Source: Octopus sinensis
Taxonomy: Eukaryota
Assembly (NCBI RefSeq): GCF_006345805.1
Contig: NC_043005.1
Location: 74,462,001-74,526,000 of the forward strand
DNA: 64,000 nucleotides
Direction of reading: 5' to 3'
This document shows positions 7,091-43,844 of the stretch, piece by piece. Under the pieces are notes generated by a model. It searched no databases. It was not told the DNA's origin and saw only the letters and a program-made list of their open reading frames with translations. Position 1 is the first letter of the stretch. The number at the start of each line of letters is the position of its first letter. Made by a program: the position numbers and the translations under genes.

Positions 7091-7875
7091 CTATGTGTCC
7101 TGAGTTCGATTTTTGTAGTAGGCGGATAGCATGGAGGCCAAGTCTTGGAAGGATTTTAAAATTGATGGCAACATCATTTGTGCAATATTGATGGGATATT
7201 TTCCACATCGCACAAATGACGTAGCGCTCCCAGCGGCATTGGAGAGAGTAGAGATTGAGTTTTTTAGTCGATCCCAATAGTCAATACCTTTCATACCGTC
7301 TATCTTTCTTGTTATTGACCTCTGGAGTGCTTCTACTTTCATAATGAGCTGTTTCATATGGGGAGACCACTGTGGCCAACAATATTCAAGGTGGGGTCGG
7401 ACAAAAGTAGAGTAGAAAAGGATGATGGTGTAGGCATCTCTAGACCGGAAAGTTCTCAGAATCCAGGAGCACATCTTGCGGACCAAGACAAACTTGCTCT
7501 TTACGTGGGAGCTCCAGCTTAGATTGTTATCAACAATTACTCCAAGGTCTCTGGTGTTGTTAGATGACACTAGGGAGTCACCTGAGATAAAAGCATATGG
7601 TAATTTCAGAGTATCCTCTTTTCCAAAGTGGATCAAATCAAACTTATCTTCATTTAGAAGCATATTATTTTTCTCCGCCCATTGGACAACAGCAAATAGA
7701 TCCGACTGAAGGTATATTCGGTCTCTCATACCGTTTATGGCTTTCTGGAGTTTGGAATCATCTGCAAATATTTCCAATGTAGAACGTTTAATGACGTCTA
7801 CTATGTCATTGATGTAGATAATGAAGAGGAGTGAGTCCAACACAGTACCTTGTGGTCCATCACCACTGACTTTGG
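7091..7875 (-). mobile_element. CR1/L2-group LINE reverse transcriptase fragment (pseudogene)
   Basis: GPQGTVLDSLLFIIYINDI...FADDSKL...RDLGVIVD..LSW..H...VRPHLEY..W.P motifs; frameshift near the C-terminus. Confidence 0.9.
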
Positions 7876-7895
7876 CAGATAGTTAGATGCACATT

Positions 7896-17009: not shown

Positions 17010-17853
17010 AATCCTCTCTACTAAAGACACAAGGCCTGAAATTTATGGGGTGGGGAGGGGGCCAGTCAATTACATCCCCTCTCCTCCTCAGTACTCAATG
17101 GATATTTATTTTATTGACACCAGATGGATCAACGGCAAAGCTGACCTCAGCGGGATTTGAAATCAGAACGTAAAGACAGACGAAATGCCGCTAAACATTT
17201 TATTCAGCGTGCTAACGACTCTTATTTCTTTATTGCCCACAAGGGGCTAAACATAGTGGGAACAAACAAAGAGAGACAAAGGGATTAAGTCGATTATATC
17301 GACCCCAGTGAGTAACTGGAACTTAATTTATCAACCTTGAAAGGATGAAAGGCAAGGTCGATCTCGGCGGAATTTGAACTCAGAACGTAACGGCAGACGA
17401 AATACCTATTTCTTTACTACCCACAGCGGGTTAAACACAGAGAGGACAAACAAAGACAGACAAACGGATTAAGTCGATTATATCGACCCCAGTGCGTAAC
17501 TGGTACTTATTTAATTGACCTCGAAAGGATGAAAGGCAAAGTCGACCTTGGCGGAATTTGAACTCAGAACGTAGCGGCAGACGAATTACCGCTAAGAATT
17601 TCGCCCGGTATGCTAACGTTTCTTATTTCTTTATTGCCCACAAGGGGCTAACCATAGGGGAGACAAACAAGGAGAGACAAAGGGATTAAGTCGATTAGAT
17701 CGACTCCAGTGCGTAACTGGTACTTAATTTATCGACCCCGAAAGAATGAAAGGTAAAGTCGATCTCGGTGGAATTTGAACTCAGAACGTAGCGGCAGACG
17801 AAATACCGCTAAGCATTTCGCCCGGCGTGCTAACGATTCTGCCAGCTCGCCGC
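17010..17853 (-). mobile_element. Tandem/nested array of about four SINE family B units
   Basis: AAAGGATGAAAGGCAAAGTCGACCTCGGCGGAATTTGAACTCAGAACGTA recurs at ~17130, 17341, 17524 and 17741. Confidence 0.9.
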
Positions 17854-22424: not shown

Positions 22425-22845
22425 AGGCGGCGAGCTGGCAGAACCGTTAGCACGCCGGGCGAAATGCGTAGCCGTATTTCGTCTGCCGTTACGTTCTGAG
22501 TTCAAATTCCGCCGAGGTCGACTTTGCCTTTCATCCGTTCGGGATCGATTAAATAAGTACCAGTTACGCACTGGGGTCGATGTAATCGACTTAATCCGTG
22601 TGTCTGTCCTTGTTTGTCCCCTCTGTGTTTAGCTCGTTGTGGGTAGTAAAGAAATAGGTATTTCGTCTGCCGCTACGTTCTGAGTTCAAATTTCGCCGAG
22701 GTCGACTTTGCTTTTCATCCTTTTGGGGGTCGATCAATTAAGTACTAGTTACTCACTGGGGTCGATGTAATCGACTTAATCTCTTTGTCTGTCCTTGTTT
22801 GTCCCCTGTATGTTTAGCCCCTTGTGGGCAATAAAGAAATAAGAA
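22425..22845 (+). mobile_element. SINE family B dimer inserted among older family B copies
   Basis: Two consecutive GAGTTCAAATT..GCCGAGGTCGACTTTGC units; AATAACAATAA on both flanks; minus-strand copies at ~22040-22230 and ~22850-23070. Confidence 0.9.
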
Positions 22846-23260: not shown

Positions 23261-24032
23261 CCTACCTACCTACCTATCCGTCTATCAATCTATCTATCTA
23301 TCTATCTATCTATCTATGTGTGTGTATGTATGTGAGGGAAGGGCAGAGCGGGAAAGAGAGAGGGAGAGAGAGAGAGAGAGAGAGTTAGATAGAGAGAGAG
23401 AGAGAATATGGTTTGAAGATAAAATGTAATTTAATGTCATCGGAATGTTGGCTGTACGAAATCGACCTTATGTTGAAAGCAATGCTCACAAGCAAGCAAT
23501 GTAGCTAAAGGTATGTTCACCGAATTTAATCTCTGACTCCAAGCTCAGTAATTCCTCAGTCTGCAATTAGTAGAAGATAGTTAAAGACAGCTTGAAAAGA
23601 TTTTGATCAAACACTCTTAGCTGTTGAAAAATACATGCTTTAAAAAAATGGTGCATTCGCAATAAATTATATTGACGTCTACTCGCATTACTTTATTGGG
23701 TGGTCTGTGCTTAGATTTAAAGCAGCACTTAAGCGTTTCAGACAATATTTTTAGTAGAATTAACGAATACTGTACCCCAAAACAACATTCTGTATATATA
23801 TATATACACAGATTTTTTCTCTTACGAGGTTTTCACGTTAACTACTGATAATTTCTTATAAATATAAAGATTTTATCCTTAATTTTAAATTTATATTTTC
23901 CACCGGAATAGTTCAATACTGAATTTTTGTTCCGAGTAGGCAAGTTGTTACCGAAATGCATTGCGAATAAGCCCGCCGTTTTCATAGATATGTAAAGATA
24001 AACATTCGTACATGCTACGACGAATTCTACGG

Positions 24033-26807
24033 AGTTACTTTTTTCATCTGCGTTCTGAGGAATTAGCTGCCTTTATTTAAGAGAGTTCGTATTTGTGCTA
24101 TTGTTGTTTGTGTTGATTGTTTTGAACAGTGCCCGTTGTATAACGGTAATTTTCGCCCTACGGGGCAGAAAATTTGTATTGTATTACCTGTATTTTTATT
24201 ACCTTCGAGGTAATGGATTTCGACTTGACGTCGAAGGAGGATTTTCCCGTGATGGGAAAAAGTGAAAATAAGGAAACAGAAGTACCAAAACAGTCATTTT
24301 CGGCCGCGGTGGGCGGTGCTATGATGGTTGTGGAGTTCAAAATCGAACAATTGTTCGAATTCAGGAACCTGGTGAAGGTGGAAGGAGGAGAATCAGGCTT
24401 GTACCGCCGCAGGCAAAGGTACAAGAGATTAAAGAAAAAACAGTCATTTATAAAGTATACAGCTTCAAAGAGAAGAAGATAATGGACGTAAGAAATGAAA
24501 TGGTGGAAAAGTGCCTGTCCCCGGTGTGGGACAAAATTCGTCATCTCGTCCGAGGTGCGCGTAGTGCTACGGTTGAGGCACATTTGACACAGCCGAGGTA
24601 GCGAGAGAGGTGTCGTCATTGACCCCTGAAAAACGACGACATCATGCTGCTACCTCGTACATGGGAAAACGTACGGCAAAACTGCTGGTTGAGGACATAC
24701 CCAGAGGGTACGACATTATGTGGGTAGCAGCAGCGGTCCTGCACAATATTGAACGGGAAATCTCGATACTGCAGATGAGAAAGAAAGAGGTGTACGATGG
24801 AAGGGACAGACCCTGAACTCCTCGTGCAGGCGGAAAACAAAATTTTAGAAAACCTGCCCGATAGGATATTCAATGAAGACGGAACATCAATGAGAGTATC
24901 AGTAGAGGGACGTAGACCCAGATGTTTTAAGTGTGGAGAGAAGGGTCACGTCCGATCGAACTGCATAAAATGGGTTGTATAAATGTACGTGGAATGGGGT
25001 CGAAATGGAAGCAAATTTGCTTCCTGCACGACCTCACGACACATGGTGTTGATATAGCTATTGCAACCGAGTCCAAGATGAACGGGGCCCAAGCGTTCTC
25101 GCCTCTTCTAAATGGCTTCGAGAAATTTTTTCTCCTAGCCGAGGGAGAGGCAGAGGCGTGGCAGTCCTTATCGGGAAGAGCTTGGACTTGCAGGTAAGTA
25201 CTGTCTTTCTGGACCCAGAAGGCAGGCTGGTTGTTCTGGATGTGACACCGGTAAGTAACAGTCCTTCAGGTTGGTAGCTGTCTATGCTCCGAACGAGAGT
25301 AGACAGCAGGTTTTTTCGGAACCTGGAGCCCTTTTTAGCGACGTCGAAAACGGTAATCCTAGTAGGGGACTTTAACACTGTCCTTGAAGCGCGGGTCGAC
25401 AGTGTTGGGCTCAACCAATAGGAAGGGGAACCATAGCCTCAAGGGTCTACTAGAGAGCTTGATCTAGTAGACCGTTACCGACTGGATGAGCCGAGCGTTC
25501 CACAGTGGACGTGGAGTAACAGCGACGGCTCACGCAGATCGTATTTAGATAGGATATTTATTAAGAAAAGAGATAAGCACGTTTAGTTGTCCACAGTTCC
25601 ACATTGTGCCTTACTCGGATCACAAATTTGTGACGTGTGAGATGCAGTTGGACAAGTGTCATAGACAAGGACTCGGTGTATGGAAGCTGAACAAGGCTAT
25701 TTTGAATTGTGAAGACTTCCGTACCCGGATTAAGGTATTAGTACAGAGGGCATTGTGTGGCACCATCATTAACAATAGATTGTGGCACTCCCTCAAAAGA
25801 GCCATTCGTTCAGAGTCCGTTAGATTTAGCAATCAGCTAAGGATAGATAGGGCTAGTCTAGAGGGCGATTTAGTTAGAATCTAGACGAGGCAATGGAAGC
25901 TGGCTCTGCATCCGGAGTGTTGGCGGCAAGGACGGTATTGTACCGTCACCTTAACTCCAAACACGAAGGTTGCAGAGTCAGAGCTAAGCTACGCGCTGGG
26001 AAACGAGAAGGTATTAACGTGGCCGGATGGGCCCGTCGTGTGGAGAGTCAGAGAGGCAACAAAGCCTCAATCAAATCTTTAACTGACGAACAGGGACAAA
26101 AGATCCCTGGCCTGGCAGTGTTATAGGAACGCTCTACCTGTTCGCGAGAAGTTATCGCGGCACGGAATTCCAGTGCCACCGACGTGTCCAAGGTGCGAGT
26201 TGGACGATGAAACCGTCCAGCACGCCTTTGTACACTGTCGGAAGTTGTCAGACTTGATAAGTTACGCAGAACACGTGTTATCGCATCTAGGACGAGTACA
26301 GCTGTCGCTGAGTCTATGATTAAGATGATCCGCCAACTGGACTCTCGAAGGAAGGTGAGGCATGTTTCACTGTACGGTTGCAGTAGTAAAGAATGCATGT
26401 GGAGAACAAGAATGGAAGAGTCGCGATAGGAACCTTTGTCTCCGCCCCGGCTTGCTCACTTACTTCAGATATCATCTGAGGAGCAAAATGGGCTGGAGAA
26501 GAGGAGCTTACCACGGGGAGTGTATGAGAAAAGATGGAAGGAATTGGAAAGAAAGGTGGGTGTTAGAAACCCAGCTTAACTATGGAGGGAGGAGAGGAAA
26601 TAAAAAGCTGCGGGGGCTTGTAATTGCCGGGTTTGAACTGTGATAAGATGCGACTGGTTATACAAAGGACAATTTAGAGACGAATTTTTAATATAAATGT
26701 TAAAAAAAAAAAAATTTTTTAAAAGCGAACCTCTTAATTATTTGTTTACATGTTTGTTTTGTAATTGTAATTCTATGTGTAAGATTATATAATCATAATA
26801 AAGAAAT
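24033..26807 (+). mobile_element. Tx1/L1-clade retrotransposon copy 1 (two internal deletions, 3' end intact)
   Basis: ORF1 pieces with zinc knuckle CFKCGEKGHVRSNC; AP-endonuclease remnants; C-terminal CPRCELDDETVQHAFVHC; ends AATAAAGAAAT; 17-bp TSD at 24016-24032 and 26808-26824. Confidence 0.93.
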
Positions 26808-27032
26808 TACGACGAATTCTACGGTTGGCTATCTATTCTCAAGTTACTTTTCATCTGCGTTCTGAGGAATTAGCTGCCTTTATTTGAGAGAGTTCGTATT
26901 TTTGCTTATTGTTGTTTGTGTTGATTGTTATTGAACAGTGCCCGTTGTATAACGGTAATTTTCGCCCTACGGGGCAGAAAATTTTGTATTGTTATTACCT
27001 GTATTGTTATTACCTTCGAGGTAATTTTGGAA

Positions 27033-28451
27033 ATGGATTTCGACTTGACGTCGAAGGATGATTTCCCGTGAGGGAACAAGTGAAACAAAGAAACAGAAGT
27101 ACCTAAACAGTCTTTTCGGCCGCGGTGGGCGGTGCCATGATGGACGTGGAGTTCAAGATCGAACAACTGTTAGAATTTAGGACCTAGTGAAGGTGGAAGG
27201 AGGCGAAATCAGGCTTGTACCGCCGCAGGCAAGGTACAAGAATAAGGAGAAAACAGTCATATATAAAGTGTACAGCTATAAAGACAAGAAAATCATGGAC
27301 GTAAGAAATGAAATGGTCGAAAAGTGCCTGTCCCCGGTGTGGGACAAAATTCGTCATGTCGTCCGAGGTGCGCGTAGTGCTACTGTTGAGGTACACTTTG
27401 ACTCAGCTGAGGTAGCTAGAGAGGTATCATCGTTGACCCTGAAAAACGATGACATCATGCTGCTACCCTCGTACATGGGAAAACGAACAGCGAAACTGCT
27501 GGTTGAGGACATACCGAGAGGCTATGAGATAATGTGGGTAGCAGCAGCGGTCCTGCACAATATTGAGCGGGAGATCTCGATTCTGCAGATGAGAAAGAAA
27601 GAGGAGGTACGCTGGAAGGGACAGACGCTGGAACTCCTCGTGCAGGCGGAAAACAAAATATTGGAGAACCTGCCAGACAGGATATTCAACGAAGACGGAA
27701 CATCAATGAGAGTATCAGGAGGGACGTAGACCCAGATGTTTTAAGTGTGGAGAGAAGGGTCACGTCCGCTCGAACTGCATAAAAAAGAAGAAAACAAATG
27801 AAGCCTCCTCCTCCAAGTGTCCCAACACTGAAGGGGAGAAGACAGAAAAGGATAATAACAAGACGAAAACAAGTATTGAAACAGAAACGGATTGCACCGA
27901 ACAATGGACTACACTCAATTCACACATAAAAGAAAAAAAACAACACCCCGGACTCCCTCCCCAAACAAAAAATCAGCAAGCACAGCAGACATACACATCA
28001 AGCAAATCCCCCAGCCCTACCCCCATGGCACTGTTTTCATTGGGAAACAGTTTGCCAAGCCCCTCCCCATAAAACAAGACGTGAAAAAGTCGTTAAAAAA
28101 AATGAGAAGATCATTGCTTTCGATGAGAAAAACGAAAGAGTTTATAAATATTATAAATTTTCAAAATTTAAGTTATACAGTAAGGCTACAGATATAAAAG
28201 CAACCACTCGCTTCGCGAAAATAAAGGAAGACGAGTGGAAGGAAGAAGTTCTTCAAGAGCATCTAAAGAACAGACTGATCAGAGACGTGACTAAAGAAGT
28301 AATGGAGGGCAAACTTGTGATAACCCCGGCAACCACACCCACCCAGAGCCCGGTGGCAACGCCGGTCAAGAGCCCCGCAGCTACAACTACAAGGGAGGAA
28401 GAAGGGGAAGCGGGCAGATTTAAACTGTCATGCTCCCTTTCCCAACCGTGA
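27033..28451 (+). pseudogene. Tx1 ORF1 (gag-like, CCHC zinc knuckle), frameshifted
   Basis: Begins MDFDLTSKDDFP; ORF pieces 27187-27729 and 27892-28197; CX2CX4HX4C knuckle at ~27737-27778; TGA at 28449-28451, shortly before the ORF2 ATG. Confidence 0.8.
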
Positions 28452-28479
28452 GTTCATTTATTTTTCTCTCTCACCTACA

Positions 28480-31400
28480 ATGGCTAAGCTGGGTTGTATA
28501 AATGTACGTGGAATGGGGTCGAAATGGAAGCAAATTTGCTTCCTGCACGACCTCACGACACATGGTGTAGACATAGCTATTGCAACCGAGTCCAAGATGA
28601 ACGGGGCCCAAGCGTTCTCGCCTCTTCTAAATGGCTTCGAGAAATTTATTTCTCCTAGCCGAGGAAGAGGCAGAGGCGTGGCAGTCCTTATCAGGAAGCT
28701 TGGACTTGCAGGTAAGTACTGTCTTTCTGGACCCAGAAGGCAGGCTGGTTGTCCTGGATGTGACCCACGTAAGTAAACAGTCCTTCAGGTTGGTAGCTGT
28801 CTACGCTCCGAACGAGAGTAGACAGGCGGGTTTTTTTCGGAACCTGGAGCCCTTTTTAGCGACGTCGAAAACGGTAATCCTAGTAGGGGACTTTAACACT
28901 GTCCTTGAAGCGCGGGTCGACAGTGTTGGCTCAACCAATAGGAAGGGGAACCCTAGCCTCAAGGGTCTACTAGAGAGCTTTGATCTAGTAGACCGTTACC
29001 GACTGGATGAGCCGAGCGTTCCACAGTGGACGTGGAGTAACAGCGACGGCTCACGCAGATCGTATTTAGATAGGATATTTATTAAGAAAAGAGATAAGGA
29101 CACGTTTAGTTGTCCACAGTTCCACATTGTGCCTTACACGGATCACAAATTTGTGACGTGTGGGATGCAATTGGACAAGTGTCATAGACAGGGACCCGGG
29201 TACTGGAAGCTGAACAAGGCTATTTTGAATTGTGAAGACTTCCGTACCCGGATTAAGGTGTTAGTACAGAGGGCATTGTGTGGCACCATCATTAACAATA
29301 GATGGTGGCACTCCCTCAAAAGAGCCATTCGTTCAGAGTCCGTTAGATTTAGCAAGCAGCTAAGGATAGATAGGGCTAGATTAGAGGACGATTTAGTTAA
29401 GAATCTAAACGAGGCAATGGAAGCTGGCTCTGCATCCGGAGTGTTGCCGGCAAGGACGGTATTGTACCGTCACCTTAACTCCAAACACGAGGGTTGCAGA
29501 GTCAGAGCTAAGCTACGCGCTGGGAAACGAGAAGGTATTAACGTTGCCGGATGGGCCCGCCGTGTGGAGAGTCAGAGAGGCAACAAAGCCTCAATCAAAT
29601 CTTTAACTGACGAACAGGGACAAAAGATCTATGGACAGGAGGAGATGCAAAAGTTTCTTCACCAGCATTTCGCCCGCGTGTTCGGGGGTGGTGTGGCGCC
29701 GGAGCGGGGGAGAACCTTAAAGGACTTCCTGGCCGGCGGACCGCGGCTCTCGGGGCGTGAGGTGGAGTGCTGTGAAGGAGCGATCACTCCCGCGGATATA
29801 GAGGGGATACTGGCCGGATGCGCCGGGGAGAAGTCGCCGGGGTTGGATGGTCTGCCCTACGAGTTTTACCAATATATGCCGGACTTGTTCGGGGGGATAT
29901 TGGCAGGCGTCTACACGAACTGGCAGCAGAATGGGAGAATTCCCAGCTCTGTAAGCCGGGGAGTGGTGACGCTAATCCAGAAAGACCCGAGCAAGGGGGA
30001 TAACATTAGTAACTACAGGCCCATAACTCTACTTAATGTAGAGTTAAAGATTTTGGCCAAGGTGTTGGCAAAAAGGTTGACGGTTGTCGTGGAGAAACTT
30101 GTAGGGAGAGCACAGACATGTGCAATTCCAGGCAGGTCGATCCAGGACAATCTTCACCTTATACGCTACACCTTAGACAGGGTGGGTAAATTAACCGGCA
30201 AGGGCGGGGTAATGGTCCATTTAGACCAAAGTAAAGCGTTCGATAGGGTAGACCATGAGTACCTGGCGACGGTCCTCGAAGCGGCTGGACTGGGCCCTGA
30301 ATTTCGCGGGTGGATCTCCGCTATGTATAGCGGCATCAAGTCCACCGTCCAGATAAACGGTTACCTAACGGAACCGTTTTCGATTGAATGTTCAGTTCGT
30401 CAAGGGTGCCCCTTGTCACCACTTTTGTACGTGTTGGCTCTTGAGCCATTGCTGCGAAAGTTGGAGAGGCTGGGAAGCAACTCGGATGAGATCGGAGGTG
30501 GGAGGTCGGTGACTGCTTACGCGGATGACGTCACCCTCATCGTGTCCAATGAGGCCCAGCTACCTTGTGTGGAAGAGGCTATCAGAGGATACGAGGCGGT
30601 GGCAGGAGCAAAGGTTAACAAGGACAAGTCGGTTGGCTTGCGCCTCTGCACCTGGAGGAGCAAGTCGATATCGTCCAGCGTCGTGGGACACTGGACGGAT
30701 GGCCCTGTTAAGTTGCTAGGAGTCTGGTTTGGGCCAGACTCCCAAACGGAGAGGAACTGGAGTGAGGTGACGAGCAAGGTGGAGGCCATAGTACGGACCT
30801 GGTCCGGAAGGTCTCTGTCCTTGAAAGGAAGGGCGGAGGTGGTGCAGATGTTCATTGCATCTGTAATCACTTACCGCCTGACCGTTGTCCCTTGCCCCGG
30901 TTCATGGCTTAACAAGTTGGAGCGAATCCTTTTCCGCTTTTGTGGAAGGGAGGAAAGCCACTTGTGAGGCGCTCCGTTTGCTGCCAGGAACCGTTAAAGG
31001 GTGGGTTAGGAATGCCTTGGTTGATGATGCGCAGACATGCGTTGAGGCTGAAGCATCTCTGGCACCACCTGGAGGGTGATAAGGTGTGGAGTCCGCTGGC
31101 AGGGAATTTTTCCCGAGACTGGCCTCCTTAACGGATTTTAAACCCGGTCGCATCAAAAGATGGAAACTGACTTTATAGCAAAGGGAGTGCCGACAGGCAC
31201 TCACGCTGATCCACAAGGCGGGCAAGGCCGGCTGCGGAAATACCACCTCGGTATTTTATAGAAGGCTGGTAGAGGCAAAGAACGACGACGTCCTAGGAGG
31301 GGCTCTGGGGTTTGACGAAGACCAGCTTACCAACCTGTTTAAAAAGACTTTCAGGACGGGGTACTTGGATAATTTCCAAAGATCCCTGGGTTGGCAGTGC

Positions 31401-31493
31401 TATAGGAACGCTCTACCTGTTCGCGAGAAGTTATCGCGGCACGGAATTCCAGTGTCACCGACGTGTCCAAGGTGCGAGTTGGACGATGAAACC
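28480..31493 (+). pseudogene. Tx1 ORF2: AP endonuclease + reverse transcriptase, frameshifted and C-terminally deleted
   Basis: CINVRG, VYAPN, VGDFN, SYLDRIF, TDHK (APE); KSPGLDGLPYEFY, YRPITLLN, LDQSKAFDRVDH, VRQGCPLSP, AYADD (RT); GGLG after a frameshift. Confidence 0.95.
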
Positions 31494-31631
31494 TCTTAAT
31501 TATTGTTTTGCATGTATGTTATGTATTTGTAATTCTATGTAAACGATTGTATAATCGTAATAAAGAAATTACGACGAATTCTACGGTTGGCTGTCGGGTA
31601 TGTAATGTTGTGTTTTTTTCTTATATGTCTT

Positions 31632-31708
31632 GAGTTCGTTGCACTGAAGAACATAAAATGCATATTCTGCATTGATTGCGAAATCACAGGTGATATGTAA
31701 CTAAATTC
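31632..31708 (+). ncRNA. Type I hammerhead ribozyme motif
   Basis: Stem I GTTGCA/TGTAAC, extended by GAGTT/AATTC past an internal loop; core CTGAAGA (31644-31650); stem II containing AATGCA-TATTC-TGCATT; GAAA (31680-31683); stem III ATCAC/GTGAT; cleavage triplet AUA at 31693-31695. The first stem II pair is A-C instead of the canonical G-C. Confidence 0.75.
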
Positions 31709-32162
31709 TGTTTTTAAATGACTTGCTTTGAAGTTTTGCATTCGGTACAATTTGTTTATTTTAGTAGTTTTGACTGCAAAAGTCCCTCCTAGCATGCGGC
31801 ACCTATGAATAATAGTACCCTCTATATTATATAAATAAATATTTTCAAAGTGGAAAAATTTACAGATTTTTTCTCTTAAGAGGTTTTCACGCTAACTACT
31901 GATAATTTCTTATAAAGATTTTATCCTTAATTTTAAATATATATATATATATATATATAAATTTATATAAATAAGGATAAGATCGTTAATTTAAAAATAA
32001 AATAACGATTTCAAGTGGTCAGCATGGAAAAAATAACCTTCAAAGGTAATAATTATTAAAATTATAAATTAGGGTATCTACGAAATACCACCATGCTGAA
32101 AATAACAGCCATGATCTGACTCAAGGATTTACGGTATGTATATATATATATATATATATATA

Positions 32163-32684
32163 CCGTAAATCCTCGAGTATAATCCACATTTTCCCCCCAA
32201 AATTTAAAGGCCAAAATCCCTAGTGCGTACTACATACGAGGTTAAAAATGAAAAATATTTTCTAAGCAATGTCCGAGTCTCTATTTGCAATATTTATTCA
32301 GACGCATTTTGTGATGTCGGGCGCGAAAATACCTTAAGCTAAGCCTGAAAGCAATGAAGTCATAAAAGAATCCTCCATAACTTGCAGTAAGCAACATTAA
32401 TTAAAATGAAAGTATTCAGAACACAGAATAGCATGTAGCAAAAACAATTTGCAAATATATTTACATTGCCATATAACAGTATAACAGTTAAGAACATCAC
32501 CGTTATTGTATTACGCATGCGCGGAAGTGATTGTTCGACTAGGTGCTGCTGGCTTAATTACGCACGACTCAAGTTAGAGAAGGGGTGCGTATTATACACA
32601 AGGTTTAGGTTTTTCAGAGGTACAGCCTCCTAAAAATCCCCTGCGTATTATACTCAAGGGCGGACTATACTCGAGGATTTACGG
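32163..32684. mobile_element. Tc1/mariner-superfamily MITE
   Basis: TA|CCGTAAATCCTCGAGTATA ... TATACTCGAGGATTTACGG|TA perfect TIRs; subterminal TGCGTATTATAC repeats; orphan end at 32119-32136. Confidence 0.92.
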
Positions 32685-32767
32685 TATATATATATAATAC
32701 TATATTTGTTCCACGCCCTCGCGTTGTTGTGTTTTCTCTTTGTGTTTTCATGTTTGGATCAACTAAC

Positions 32768-40175: not shown

Positions 40176-43100
40176 TCATCATTATTTAGCGTCCGCTTTC
40201 CATGCTAGCATGGGTTGGACGGGTCAACTGGGGTCTGTGAAGCTGGAAGGCTTCATCAGGCCCAGTCAGATCTGGCAGTGTTTCTACGGCTGGATGCCCT
40301 TCCTAACGCCAACCACTCCGCGAGTGTAGTGGGTGCTTTTCACGTGCCACCTGCACAGGTGCCAGACAGAGCTGGCGAACGGCCACGAACGGATGGTGCT
40401 TTTACGTGTCACCGGCACGGGGCCAGGCGATGCTGGCAACGGACACGAACGGATGGTGCTTTTACATGCCACCAACACGGGGCCAGACAGAGCTGGCAAA
40501 CGGCCACGAACGGACGGTGCTTTTACGTGTCACCGGCACGGGGGCCAGCCGAGGCTGGCAACGGACGCGAACGGATGGTGCTTTTACGTGCCACCGACAC
40601 GGTTGCCAGACAGAGCTGGCAAACGGCCACGAACGGACCGTGCTTTTACGTGTCACCGGCACGGGGGCCAGCGAGGCTGGCAACGGACACGAACGGATGG
40701 TGCTTTTACGTGCCACCGACACGGGGCCAGACAGAGCTGGCAAACGGCCACGAACGGACGGTGCTTTTACGTGTCACCGGCACGGGGCCAGGCGAGGCTG
40801 GCAACGAACACGAACGGATGGTGCTTTTACGTGCCACCGACACGGGGGCCAGGCAGAGCTGGCAAACGGCCACGAGCGAATGGTGCTTTTACGTATCACC
40901 GGCACGGGGGCCAGACGAGGCTGACAGCGGACACGAACGGATGGGTCACTTAAACCCTGCTTTCTGATATATGATTTGATTTTGATTGTTCTCACTGGTC
41001 TTGCTGGGTCTTCTCACGCACAGCATACTTCCATAGGTCTCGGTCTCTGGTCATTTCCTTGGTGAGACCTAGAGTTCGAAGGTCGTGCTTCACCACCTCG
41101 ACCCAGGTTTTCCTGGGTCTACCTCTTCCACAGGTCCCCTCAACTGCCAGGGTGTGGCACTTTTTCACACACCTATCTTCATCCATTCTCACCACATGAC
41201 CATACCAGCGCAATCGTCTCTCTTGCACACAACATCTGATTCCTCTTAGGTCCAACTTTTCTCTCAAGGTACTTACACTCTGTCGACTATGAACACTGAC
41301 ATTACACATCCAACGGAGCATACTAGCTTCATTCTCGCGAGCTTACGCATGTCCTCAGCAGTCACGGCCCATGTTTCACTGCCATGTAGCATGGCTGTTC
41401 GTACACATGCATCATACAGTCTGCCTTTTACTCTGAGCGAGAGGCCTTTAGTCACCAACAGAGGTAAGAGCTCCCTAAACTTTGCCCAGGCTATTCTTAC
41501 TCTAGCCGTTACACTTTCAGCACACCCACCCCCACTACTGACTTGGTCACCAAGATAACGGAAGCTATCAACTACTTCTAGTTTTTCCCCCTGGAAAGTG
41601 ACGGAAGTTGTTTTCTGCAGATTTTCAGAGGTTAATGCTCCCGAGCATCTGCCACATACAAAAACCATCTTCCTAGTTAGCCTTCCTATGACATTGCTGC
41701 ACCTCTTATGTGTCCATAGCTTACACTTGGTGCATCTTATAGAGTTTCTACCTACACCTTTTCTACAGATCGAGCAGGGCCATCTACCTGAAGGCGTTTG
41801 TGATTTGTCTACCTTCCTACTTATTAGGACTTTGGTTTTAGCTAGGTTGACTCTAAGGCCCTTCGATTCTAAACCATGCTTCCACACCTGAAACTTCTTC
41901 TCCAGTTCTGATAATGACTCAGCAATTAGAGCAAGGTCATCAGCATAGAGGAGCTCCCAGGGGCATCCTGTCTTGAATTCCTCCGTTATTGCCTGGAGGA
42001 CTATGATAAATAGGAGGGGGCTGAGGACTGAGCCTTGGTGGACCCCTACCTCTACCCGGAATTCTTCACTGTACTCATTGCCAACCCTCACCTTACTAGC
42101 AGCGTCCCTGTACATGGCTTGCACAGCTCTCACTAACCATTCATCTATTCCTAGTTTCCTCATTGACCACCATATGAGGGATCGGGGGACCCTGTCGAAG
42201 GCTTTCTCCATGTCAACAAAAGCCAGGTACAGGGGCTTATCTTTGGCTAGGTATTTCTCCTGCAGCTGCCTTACCAGGAATATAGCATCAGTGGTACTTT
42301 TCCCTGGCATGAAACCAAACTGCATCTCATCTAAACTAACTCTCTCTCTAATTAGTTGGCTTATGACCCTCTCTGTAACCTTCATCACCTGATCCAACAG
42401 CTTGATACCTCTGTAATTATTTGTATCTAGGGCATCACCTTTACCTTTGTAGCAGTTGACTATTATGCTGCTACACCAGTCATTGGGTATGACTCCTTCA
42501 TGTATCACCTGATTAACTATACAGGTGACTAGGCTATGGCCGACACTACCAGATATTTTGAGCATCTCTGCAGTGATACCTGATGGGCCTGGGGCTTTCC
42601 CTGTCTTCATGCTTCTAATTGCCTTAGCTACTAAGGAACTATCAACCCTGATAGCTGGTCCTCTGTTGGGTCAACGTTCGGCAGACTCTCTTTATCCCAT
42701 TCATTTTCTTTATTCAGCAACCTTTCTTAGTGCGTCTCCAAGCCTCTCTCTTTGCATCCTCGTTTAGCGCAAGTGAACCATCTTCCATGCGAACACACTT
42801 CTCTCCCACCACATCACAATTCTCTCTCTCACACTGTCTTGCAACGCGAAACACCTCCAGTCTTTGGTCCTCACGGCGCAGAACATTGGCAAATTTTTTC
42901 TTATCTGCTTCCCCTCTGGCTAGATAGACCTGTCTCCTAGCTTCCCTTTTAGCAGTCTGATACAATTCCCTGCTACCACCATTCTTCCAGTGCTTCCAAG
43001 TCTCTTTTCTCTAATAGCCCTGTCTACGACACTGTTCCACCACCACGTTACCTTGGGACGAGAGGGGACTTTGCACCAGCCACAGATCTGGTCAGTGGCT

Positions 43101-43464
43101 CTCAGCAGGTTGTCCCTTAGAAACGTCCAGTTGTCATCTACCCCATGTGATACTCTATCCCCTTCTACTTCGTCAAAGGCTTCAAGTAACATGTCTCTAA
43201 ATCTCTGTCCATTCACAGGATCCTTAAGCTTCCAGATCCTTCTTCTCCATGTTGGTCGTCTTCTGGTTGTCCTCCTACTCCTGATCCTAAAGTCACTAAC
43301 TACCAGTCTATGTTGTGGGGTACATTCTTCGCCTGGGAAGGTTTTGGCATTTATAAGTAGCCATCTCTCCCTTTGCCTGGCAAGGATGTAGTCAATTTGG
43401 CTGGTATGTTGGCCCGATCGGTAGGTGACTAGGTGGCTGGTAGGTTTCCTGAAGTTAGTGTTGC

Positions 43465-43465
<1 letters not shown>
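40157..43465 (-). mobile_element. RTE-clade LINE, 5'-truncated, few frameshifts, (TGA)n tail
   Basis: IDYIL..QHRLVV (endonuclease end); KAPGPSGI..EMLK, NYRGIKLL, QFGFMPGKSTTDAIF, FVDMEKAFDRVP, GVHQGSVLSP, LLYADD, FRYLG, RLRWYGHV.RM, RGRPRKTW; stop near 40992; 3' UTR ends GGAAAGCGGACGCTAAATAA(TGA)n. Confidence 0.95.
40357..40945. repeat. GC-rich minisatellite, ~60/61-bp alternating A/B units (~121-bp higher-order repeat) in the RTE 3' UTR
   Basis: A: GCCAGACAGAGCTGGCAAACGGCCACGAACGGACGGTGCTTTTACGTGTCACCGGCACGGG; B: GCCAGGCGAGGCTGGCAACGGACACGAACGGATGGTGCTTTTACGTGCCACCGACACGGG; about 10 units. Confidence 0.92.
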
Positions 43466-43497
<32 letters not shown>

Positions 43498-43844
43498 TAT
43501 ACGACGGGCAAAGGTGGTCTCAGGTAAGTTGGCATCAAAAGGGGTTAAATTAATGAGATTAAAGAACGATATGGCTGTTATTTCTAGCATGTTGAATGAC
43601 CATGCAAAGGACTCCTTGTTGTTATTGTTGATTTTTAGCCCCAAGTCAAGCCTAGTTAAAATTATTCTAGACATCTTTCTTCCCAGGCACAATGCATGTA
43701 GGACTACATTATCCACCATGTCCTTTCCTAAACTAATAGAGTCTGTTTGAGAGAGATATAGCAAATGTTTCTGCCAGGTTAAGCAACCATGTAATTAGCC
43801 CCATCAACAACTCATTATTGACACTGTTAATTATTTTGAATAAC

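Follow-up and report, generated by a model that had tools for sequence, protein, structure and literature searches.

Target choice by Tx1-type LINEs is usually credited to the sequence specificity of their endonuclease. Several of these elements lie in other mobile elements, with Tx1L in Tx1D, Tx1-Mar in Mariner-N4_AMi, Tx1-8_Crp and Tx1-4_AMi in LTR elements, and Tx1-9_AMi in Harbinger (PMC4494074, available in part). In Dictyostelium, the ORF1p of TRE5-A interacts with TBP, Brf1 and Bdp1 (PMC5911963, in excerpt), and the pLTR of Penelope contains a transcription start site (available parts of PMC8557442 and 10.64898/2026.07.22.740005). The present study focused on a window of 64,000 nt from Octopus sinensis, in which an abundant hammerhead-bearing repeat with a 500-nt unit carries, at a single base, two diverged L1/Tx1-type copies in head-to-tail order. 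A sequence-only reading had proposed a family specific for this hammerhead target, with transcripts end-trimmed by the downstream ribozyme. The locus probably represents two successive L1/Tx1-type LINE insertions at the likely transcription start of the host repeat.

The tandem insertion and its host repeat

The target, TACGACGAATTCTACGG, begins at 24016, 26808 and 31570, and the 3' ends of both copies, AATAAAGAAAT, abut its first T, so that the earlier report of a single target base is confirmed, as is the view that this sequence flanks the element and is not part of its terminus. The target-site duplications (TSDs) were given as 17 and 23 nt, which holds if the junction T is counted (16 and 22 nt without it). 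The assignment of this T is ambiguous because the element itself supplies the base directly 3' of GAAAT in most family members (31 of 45 mismatch the target there). All features described below are on the + strand. The 5' part of the host unit, with (TA)n before it, occupies 23808..24015, matches uninterrupted copies (L034-L058) and includes a TATA-like box, TATGTAAA (23989..23996), a putative promoter element whose start lies 28 nt before 24017, the first base that certainly belongs to the TSD; the variant TATATAAA occurs in part of the second host subfamily. The 17-nt 5' TSD of copy 1 (24016..24032; 16 nt without the ambiguous T) would mark the host transcription start region. Copy 1 (24033..26807) is internally deleted, with joints near 24970 and 26100, and has lost ~0.7 kb from ORF1 and a further ~1.75 kb that takes in the RT; it shares 98.9% identity with a full-length copy in locus L152, agrees in its 5' junction with five other copies at the window target, and ends with AATAAA at 26797..26802. 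A 23-nt target duplication common to both copies (26808..26830) leads into copy 2 (26831..31569), a near full-length LINE with frameshifted ORF1 and ORF2, some of which frameshifts may be assembly errors, and with ~0.5 kb missing close to its 3' end, near 31490. Its 5' leader (26831..26843) resembles the leaders of copies at other targets and may be a remnant of earlier sites. ORF1 (27035..28451) is in pieces and retains one CCHC knuckle (zf-CCHC), and ORF2 (28480..31499), also in pieces, specifies an APE endonuclease, RT and C-terminal zinc finger. AATAAA recurs at 31559..31564 and, as cleavage follows this signal by 10-30 nt, the predicted poly(A) site falls inside the downstream TSD (31570..31592).

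Beyond the elements, the host unit resumes as its 3' part and a repeat of the unit start, then (TA)n (31587..31938). Excision of both copies restores, flanked by (TA)n runs, the 500-nt unit (23808-24032 + 31587-31861) followed by 77 nt (31862-31938) that repeat its beginning, much as had been reconstructed (~80 nt). The two copies are 95.8% identical and their deletions differ, which argues against an assembly duplication, although the four sequencing runs covered, all of contigs, gave no read across the tandem.

An intact 1129-aa ORF2, separate from ORF1, has the APE endonuclease, the RT and the C-terminal zinc finger by Pfam; the best match among solved structures is human L1 ORF2p (E 5e-57; R2, E 2e-23). 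ORF1 has a zf-CCHC domain, and an intact 514-aa relative resembles CCHC/ZCCHC3-type clusters, ZCCHC3-like look-alikes at 0.89-0.90 being a lead. At 22 single sites the TSDs measure 9-23 nt (mode 16) and 16 of the 22 copies are 5'-truncated. AATAAA stands 6-11 nt from the element 3' end, and none of 107 junctions has a poly(A) tail, in agreement with the sequence-only reading. An ORF1 CCHC knuckle and the lack of a poly(A) tail are typical of the Tx1 clade. By its ORF2 domains, separate ORF1, TSDs and 5' truncation the family fits the L1/Tx1 group of LINEs; homologue searches returned no Tx1-named relative, and the Tx1 placement used here is a putative one, from traits.

Uninterrupted copies of the host repeat, whose existence had been posed as a check, are represented by 211 exact 30-mers spanning the target site and by 3042 candidates, and the empty-site joint is also present in the contigs of sequencing run X11. 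By its core motifs (CTGAAGA at 31644, GAAA at 31680), UH cleavage triplet and three stems, the repeat carries a predicted type I hammerhead (31632..31708; predicted cleavage after 31695), stem I of which begins 46 nt past the target, where a distance of about 45 nt had been given. Stem pairing holds in 97% of 240 cells, and at the base of stem II the window copy has A.C, whereas G-C stands there in six of ten distinct rows; among 10 close rows there was no compensatory (two-sided) change, an Rfam search gave no hammerhead match at E<=1, and the free MFE fold differs from the hammerhead (z -0.36). Tandem and inverted 5'-truncated pieces within microsatellites recall Penelope-like pLTRs and retrozymes, and the repeat looks like one of these. 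That part of the earlier identification stands; the specificity of the LINE family for it is not supported. No Penelope RT/GIY-YIG ORF adjoins the window host repeat in the fetched loci, and a YIGQT fragment near a related repeat (L234), which we take to be a GIY-YIG-type motif, had no Pfam match. At L227, two host units 4951 nt apart reflect a local duplication with no Penelope ORF inside.

Target range and the TATA-like box

A Tx1 family is regarded as target-specific, by the Kojima criterion, when one sequence type makes up >20% of its flanks. Exact element 3' ends join the window target in 7 of 153 cases, 53 of the 153 lying outside the first junction set (part of these were examined later), and 21 of 108 distinct junctions fall within any of three hammerhead repeats, one of which is struck antisense. 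The family as a whole stays below the Kojima share at the window target, and one sublineage exceeds it (5 of 8 rows). Unrelated 3' flanks, named beforehand as evidence against specificity, were found for most copies. Other junctions recur at single bases of two further hammerhead repeats, of Penelope- and RTE-associated leaders and of a gene cluster, and the remainder are at single sites. In all, the family uses at least nine repeat or gene families that are unrelated to each other, besides the single sites. The window target base itself has been struck at ~6 independent loci, in two host subfamilies ~85% alike and with different truncations, which upholds the claim of independent insertions at this base.

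Upstream of these unrelated sites there is, very likely, a common positional signal: a sense TATA-like box starting ~30 nt before the insertion point. A match to TATAWAWR of >=7/8 starting at -32..-28 was found at 13 of 22 single sites, against a background of 5.7% in the same flanks (p 2e-11; scoring threshold set after the upstream sequences had been viewed, with 3 tandem junctions and 20 recurrent-class copies excluded), and at 11 of 20 once (TA)n sites were removed (p 5e-10). In a later set, which excludes L242 and L086 (same class as L019) and unresolved ends, 3 of 6 sites had the box (p 0.002), one pass being a (TA)n run. Box starts peak sharply at -30/-32, position -29 is A or T in 25 of 25, and the opposite-strand control gave 2 of 23. 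All eight recurrent repeat families scored give a 7-8/8 match at -28 or -30, the gene-cluster site has TATAAAG at -30, and the window target has its box at -28, imperfect in one host subfamily. Spacing from a putative promoter element, and orientation towards it, are fixed across unrelated loci. Nine of the 22 single sites score below 7/8 and five below 6/8; one weak-box insertion, in sense orientation, is followed 227 nt later by an LSm-domain gene, and two are inside Gypsy-like coding sequence (L162, confirmed as box-less, and L167, in which no TSD was found). In a sibling family (L109; ORF1 30% identical) with 10 loci, of which four are tandem junctions, a TATA-like box stands ~25-30 nt before the inferred TSD start at all six non-tandem loci, scored by eye and representing ~4 host types. 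Other sibling-family candidates were uninformative, one search having hit a SINE-like repeat and another a repeat with a common upstream flank.

The leaders of full-length copies begin 1-8 nt into the TSD of another class, and such remnants of earlier targets are as expected if host promoters transcribe the elements. In the flank, the lineage of the element is reflected at positions 1-5 (max p 0.008 over 41 independent sites) but not at 6-10, and at 11-15 weakly at most (median p 0.06); TSDs were identified for 45 of 78 ends, the other 33 being dropped, and 14 of the 108 junctions were too short for the tree. Three different target motifs are used by copies whose endonuclease hairpin-loop residues are identical. 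In L219, L242 and L019 the 3' TSD copy has the lineage base rather than the target base at position 1-2; by contrast, L237 combines the body of one lineage with a flank motif belonging to another, and the mismatch in L086 departs from its own lineage base. A donor-tag test of target memory gave p 0.008 over 8 pairs, confounded by lineage, and lost significance when confined to one clade (p 0.17, n=6). Endonucleases of different lineages differ at up to 21 of 240 residues, so the motif could also have drifted through protein-coded change. The T in AGATGG junctions was considered as RNA-templated and rejected, the 23-nt internal duplication of the host containing that variant.

Promoter position and competing explanations

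The favoured and probable explanation is that this LINE inserts where Pol II starts transcription, guided by position and not by a long recognition sequence. The pattern at the sites indicates that the element, in sense orientation, nicks a loosely defined Y|NC site ~30 nt beyond the TATA box and makes a TSD of ~16 bp. TBP or a preinitiation complex on the box would fix this position, much as happens when Ty3 and TRE5-A insert at Pol III genes; the balance slightly favours this step. Borrowing of host promoters, to which the leaders point, is likely: the promoter would transcribe a full-length copy, the RNA would start inside the 5' TSD, and leaders would accumulate pieces of earlier targets. 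In a weaker step, the RNA may end 5-25 nt past the element, after AATAAA, and its flank-derived tail could pair with the nicked strand, so that lineages would retain a 3-6-nt target motif and re-strike the same base in paralogues of the donor's repeat; this RNA target memory is about as likely as not.

The main rival, possible if rather unlikely, is direct bipartite recognition, in which ORF2p reads the A/T-rich box at -30..-24 and the loose Y|NC site with no host transcription factor, and promoter landing is a consequence. The positional data are equally compatible with this, and there are precedents in R2Bm, which recognises DNA ~20 nt before the position that it cuts, and in RTE-clade LINEs, which show a T-stretch upstream (PMC13295347, available in part). 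Imperfect boxes (CATTTAAG, GATTTAAA) and (TA)n runs also serve as sites. However, the ~30-nt offset matches the canonical TATA-to-start spacing, the signal is strand-specific, and one site with a weak box is closely followed by a real gene, all of which favour the promoter-position explanation. Selection combined with homology is improbable: insertion would be near-random at short motifs, with transcription of start-site copies only and a read-through tail steering offspring to paralogous sites. While this accounts for the recurrent classes, the leaders, the lineage-linked motifs and box-less sites that match the donor flank (L162, 8 nt), truncated single-site copies, dead and impossible as donors, keep the box in 9 of 16 cases, so that selection of active masters is no explanation.

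The original proposal, an endonuclease specific for TACGACGAATTCTACGG in a hammerhead retroelement with a ribozyme-trimmed transcript, is now very improbable and at the family level largely refuted. The repeated strikes on one base in two host subfamilies, the sublineage concentrated there and the three hammerhead families hit speak for it, but few exact ends join this target, and the endonucleases of window-target copies differ from those of close relatives elsewhere at 3 of 240 positions (class majorities). Antisense hits in one hammerhead family also count against it, and ribozyme trimming is unnecessary given AATAAA at the 3' end; no host piece ending at the predicted cut, 126 nt downstream, was found among the junctions examined. 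The ribozyme is probably a bystander, hammerhead repeats being targeted because they are abundant and TATA-bearing. Least probable of all is the spread of one composite by duplication, gene conversion or Penelope machinery, for although six copies share a 5' junction and TSD length, and C9065 and C10717/C10971 are plain duplicates, the elements of L152 and L157 share 99.2% identity where their 5' host flanks share 93.2%, the hosts are of different subfamilies and have different truncations and outer flanks, and single sites are left unexplained.

If integration by position is correct, it offers one explanation for Tx1 elements at fixed spots in transposons and multicopy genes, an account of the rapid rise of new 'specificities', and a testable route by which non-LTR insertion is directed to promoters; it also leads one to expect that TATA-driven genes and gene clusters of the O. 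sinensis genome are rewired repeatedly and with start-site precision. The ribozyme repeat would be one among many promoters where the family lands and which it probably borrows. A broader proposal is more tentative and, taken whole, doubtful: that a cephalopod LINE group measures its insertion point from the Pol II core promoter with TBP bound, inserts exactly at gene and retroelement starts, takes over promoters and inherits a short RNA-encoded target memory, by which near-identical lineages lock onto different repeats with the endonuclease unchanged.

Relationship to described systems

The transposon-targeting Tx1 elements are similar in being APE-RT LINEs that recur at one position of a mobile element, with tandems around the TSD, target-derived 5' extensions and proposed transcription from the flank (PMC4494074, in part). 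They are each described with one target family, whereas the octopus family has at least nine plus single sites, with TATA at -30, and the available part of the same source makes no mention of TATA anchoring or of Penelope or hammerhead hosts for them. Literature searches, with subscription papers and supplements outside their scope, returned no description of a Tx1 element or other LINE with TATA or start-site targeting, nor of Tx1 in Penelope or hammerhead repeats. The host repeat shares a type I hammerhead, partial tandems, inverted 5'-truncated pieces and (TA)n with Penelope-like pLTRs and animal non-LTR retrozymes (PMC8557442; 10.64898/2026.07.22.740005; both in part), but differs in that no autonomous RT/GIY-YIG partner was linked to it in the fetched loci and its hammerhead is a predicted one.

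P, Mu and Tf1 likewise prefer Pol II initiation regions, with tethering proposed, but these are DNA or LTR elements enriched near starts, for which the available part of PMC7337890 describes no fixed TATA offset. TRE5-A is, like the octopus family, a non-LTR APE-RT element at a fixed distance from a promoter complex, but inserts at Pol III genes, 44-54 bp upstream and in the opposite orientation (PMC5911963, in excerpt); the octopus family, known from sequence alone, inserts in sense right at TATA-type starts, which are presumably those of Pol II. Yeast Ty3, although an LTR element with an integrase that targets Pol III genes, is alike in integrating with near base precision at the transcription start, via a TBP-containing factor (same source, in excerpt).

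The window copies and their host repeat

The two head-to-tail LINEs of the window (G000:C9:74462001-74526000 in genome coordinates), copy 1 (24033..26807) and copy 2 (26831..31569), are indeed diverged, being 95.8% alike with different deletions. In agreement with the sequence-only reading, the target 17-mer starts at 24016, 26808 and 31570, and removal of both elements restores a 500-nt unit (23808-24032 and 31587-31861) followed by a 77-nt repeat of its start. Domain searches found a CCHC knuckle in ORF1, and APE, RT and zinc-finger domains in ORF2; together with the best solved relative of ORF2, human L1 ORF2p, these traits place the family likely in the Tx1 clade. The nearest named protein is from Argonauta (63-64% identity), pointing to an octopod as the probable source animal. 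At several frameshift positions (25875-26442, 30937, 31101) read contigs carry one-base insertions relative to the window, and some ORF breaks may be assembly errors or peculiar to these copies. The end of C9065, along with C10717 and C10971, all unplaced contigs, are ~100% duplicates of the window 3' junction and of each other, and are probable haplotigs.

The host repeat is abundant (3042 candidates genome-wide), and uninterrupted sites exist, with 211 exact 30-mers spanning the target. It is arranged as tandems and inverted truncated pieces within (TA)n, an arrangement of Penelope-like elements for which a description is found in PMC8557442. Its type I hammerhead motif (31632-31708) gave no match in an Rfam search; pairing in its stems holds in 97% of cells, with no covariation among 10 close rows, and in the window copy stem II is mismatched at its base. 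No autonomous partner was found at the loci examined. A related hammerhead repeat of ~480 nt forms long tandems (L231-L236; 2443 exact 23-mer matches genome-wide), with a GIY-YIG-like fragment adjoining it at one locus, L234. At G000:C9912:19300-37300 (L153, L154, L244), an inverted hammerhead repeat carries elements on both arms, and one array starting in the hammerhead host and ending in a different host repeat may stem from recombination or misassembly.

Other repeats in the window include a high-copy MITE-like element with terminal inverted repeats, lying in (TA)n (32119-32705), whose palindrome (32119-32178) was a source of spurious miRNA matches, a GC-rich minisatellite of ten 61-nt units (40332-40944), and an abundant SINE-like repeat in tandem arrangement (17223-17840, 22474-22841). 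Further LINE ORF fragments lie on the minus strand at 7094-7882 and 41276-43519, the latter presumably RTE-like from its motifs.

Landing sites of the family

The family had been proposed to be a parasite of the hammerhead repeat; recurrent insertion at one base was upheld, but family specificity was not, since most ends join other sequences. The last 20 nt of the LINE have 153 exact genome matches (a longer pattern, searched with two mismatches allowed, has 252). The host-repeat target accounts for 9 junctions genome-wide, 7 of them among the 153, and for ~6 loci after removal of duplicates. These insertions are independent, as first read, involving two host subfamilies and differing in truncations and outer flanks; in one pair the elements are 99.2% alike and the hosts 93.2%. 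The recurrence is genuine and greatly exceeds chance, but it is a matter of one sublineage (5/8 rows), and the endonucleases of copies at this target and of neighbours inserted elsewhere show 3 differences over 240 positions. Of 108 distinct junctions, three different hammerhead families hold 7, 6 and 8, the last with 7/8 antisense to the ribozyme. Further recurrent sites are a repeat that precedes a Penelope-like ORF fragment, several leaders before RTE-type ORFs (ORF types that we assume from their motifs) and a gene cluster; the remaining junctions are single sites. The hammerhead repeat is one among many TATA-bearing landing sites.

A different repeat (L044/L048, L185, L200), ending in GGGTAATAAAGAA(A/G)T, has the same tail as the LINE family, and one of its copies abuts the hammerhead target described above, ~3 nt from the LINE site; it is possibly a sibling or non-autonomous partner. 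Among the matches listed, 22 exact LINE ends lie within ~1.1 Mb of G000:C28 (~4.36-5.50 Mb), and insertions of the same kind occur at C2:195.34-195.38 Mb (L019, L086, L240-L242, L256-L260). The ends examined there mostly follow, at ~30 nt, a TATA-like box belonging to a repeated unit, which has a splice-donor-like site ~310 nt downstream and appears to be a gene cluster whose putative promoters have been occupied again and again by the family.

A TATA-like box upstream of insertions

Target-site duplications (TSDs), mostly of 16 bp, were identified for 45/78 LINE ends. They start one base past the GAAAT end, where the local consensus is merely Y|NC, and at recurrent sites a TATA box lies upstream at constant distance. 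A box was defined as TATAWAWR with at least 7/8 matches, starting within -32..-28 of the TSD; the prediction for single sites was written down along with the first look at sites, and the numeric threshold was fixed later. Of 22 single sites, 13 have such a box, compared with a background of 5.7% in those flanks (p 2e-11); the count is 11/20 once (TA)n sites are removed, and 3/6 at later sites. The other 9/22 single sites fall under the threshold. The profile has its maximum at -30/-32, with A or T at position -29 in 25/25, and the opposite-strand control gave 2/23. All 8 recurrent repeat families scored reach 7-8 at -28 or -30, including the window target (TATGTAAA, 23989). These boxes are putative promoters. 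Two insertions within Gypsy-like coding sequence count against the rule. Truncated single copies have the box in 9/16 cases, which argues that the pattern arises from integration itself and not from later success of donors.

One 306-nt truncated copy (L079:1520-2169) occupies a weak-box site 227 nt upstream, in sense, of an LSm-domain ORF, which we take to be LSm10-like. Three single sites lie ahead of ORF1 of distant sibling families. One such LINE family, with ORF1 30% identical (L109:899-1701, L262-L271), has tandem arrays and 5' leaders stacked on one another; its sites are preceded, by eye, by TATA-like boxes at similar distance, and one of these sites resembles a target of the present family.

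Proposed mechanism and known systems

The leaders of full-length copies are TSDs from other classes of target, beginning 1-8 nt into them, which fits transcription from a host start site lying within the TSD. The copy 2 leader is of this type. Copy 1 has a short 5' junction common to five other copies at the target and adjoins the TATA box, so that it was probably inserted later than copy 2. The LINE end lies 5 nt past AATAAA; at the normal spacing of 3' processing, the RNA would therefore end inside the downstream TSD, 100 nt ahead of the predicted ribozyme cut. With AATAAA present, the end trimming by the ribozyme that had been proposed earlier is unnecessary, and none of the junctions examined ends at the cut.

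Flank positions 1-5 track element lineage while positions 6-10 do not, at position 1-2 of three junctions a lineage base replaces that of the target, and copies sharing hairpin-loop residues use different target motifs. Together these suggest priming on read-through RNA. A donor test of such priming within one clade was not significant (p 0.17), L237 and L086 misfit it, and endonucleases do differ between lineages. Data in PMC1950540 include an effect of the endonuclease hairpin loop on nicking preference in L1/Tx1L chimeras.

The -30 ruler may reflect guidance of integration by TBP or the preinitiation complex, a type of guidance for which Ty3 and TRE5-A offer precedent (PMC5911963). Direct reading of upstream DNA, for which R2Bm and RTE elements set a precedent (PMC13295347), could instead fix the distance; the present data fit both.

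In the openly accessible papers searched, we found no non-LTR family that inserts at a constant spacing past TATA boxes of unrelated loci, nor one described from Penelope or hammerhead repeats. An annotation of octopus repeats published recently lists active L1-Tx1 families, with no discussion of targets in the text consulted (PMC13282606). P, Mu and Tf1 are known for insertion associated with start sites (PMC7337890). Among Tx1 elements there are known examples that target other transposons, form tandems and have 5' extensions derived from the target (PMC4494074), and the present family resembles these in all three respects.
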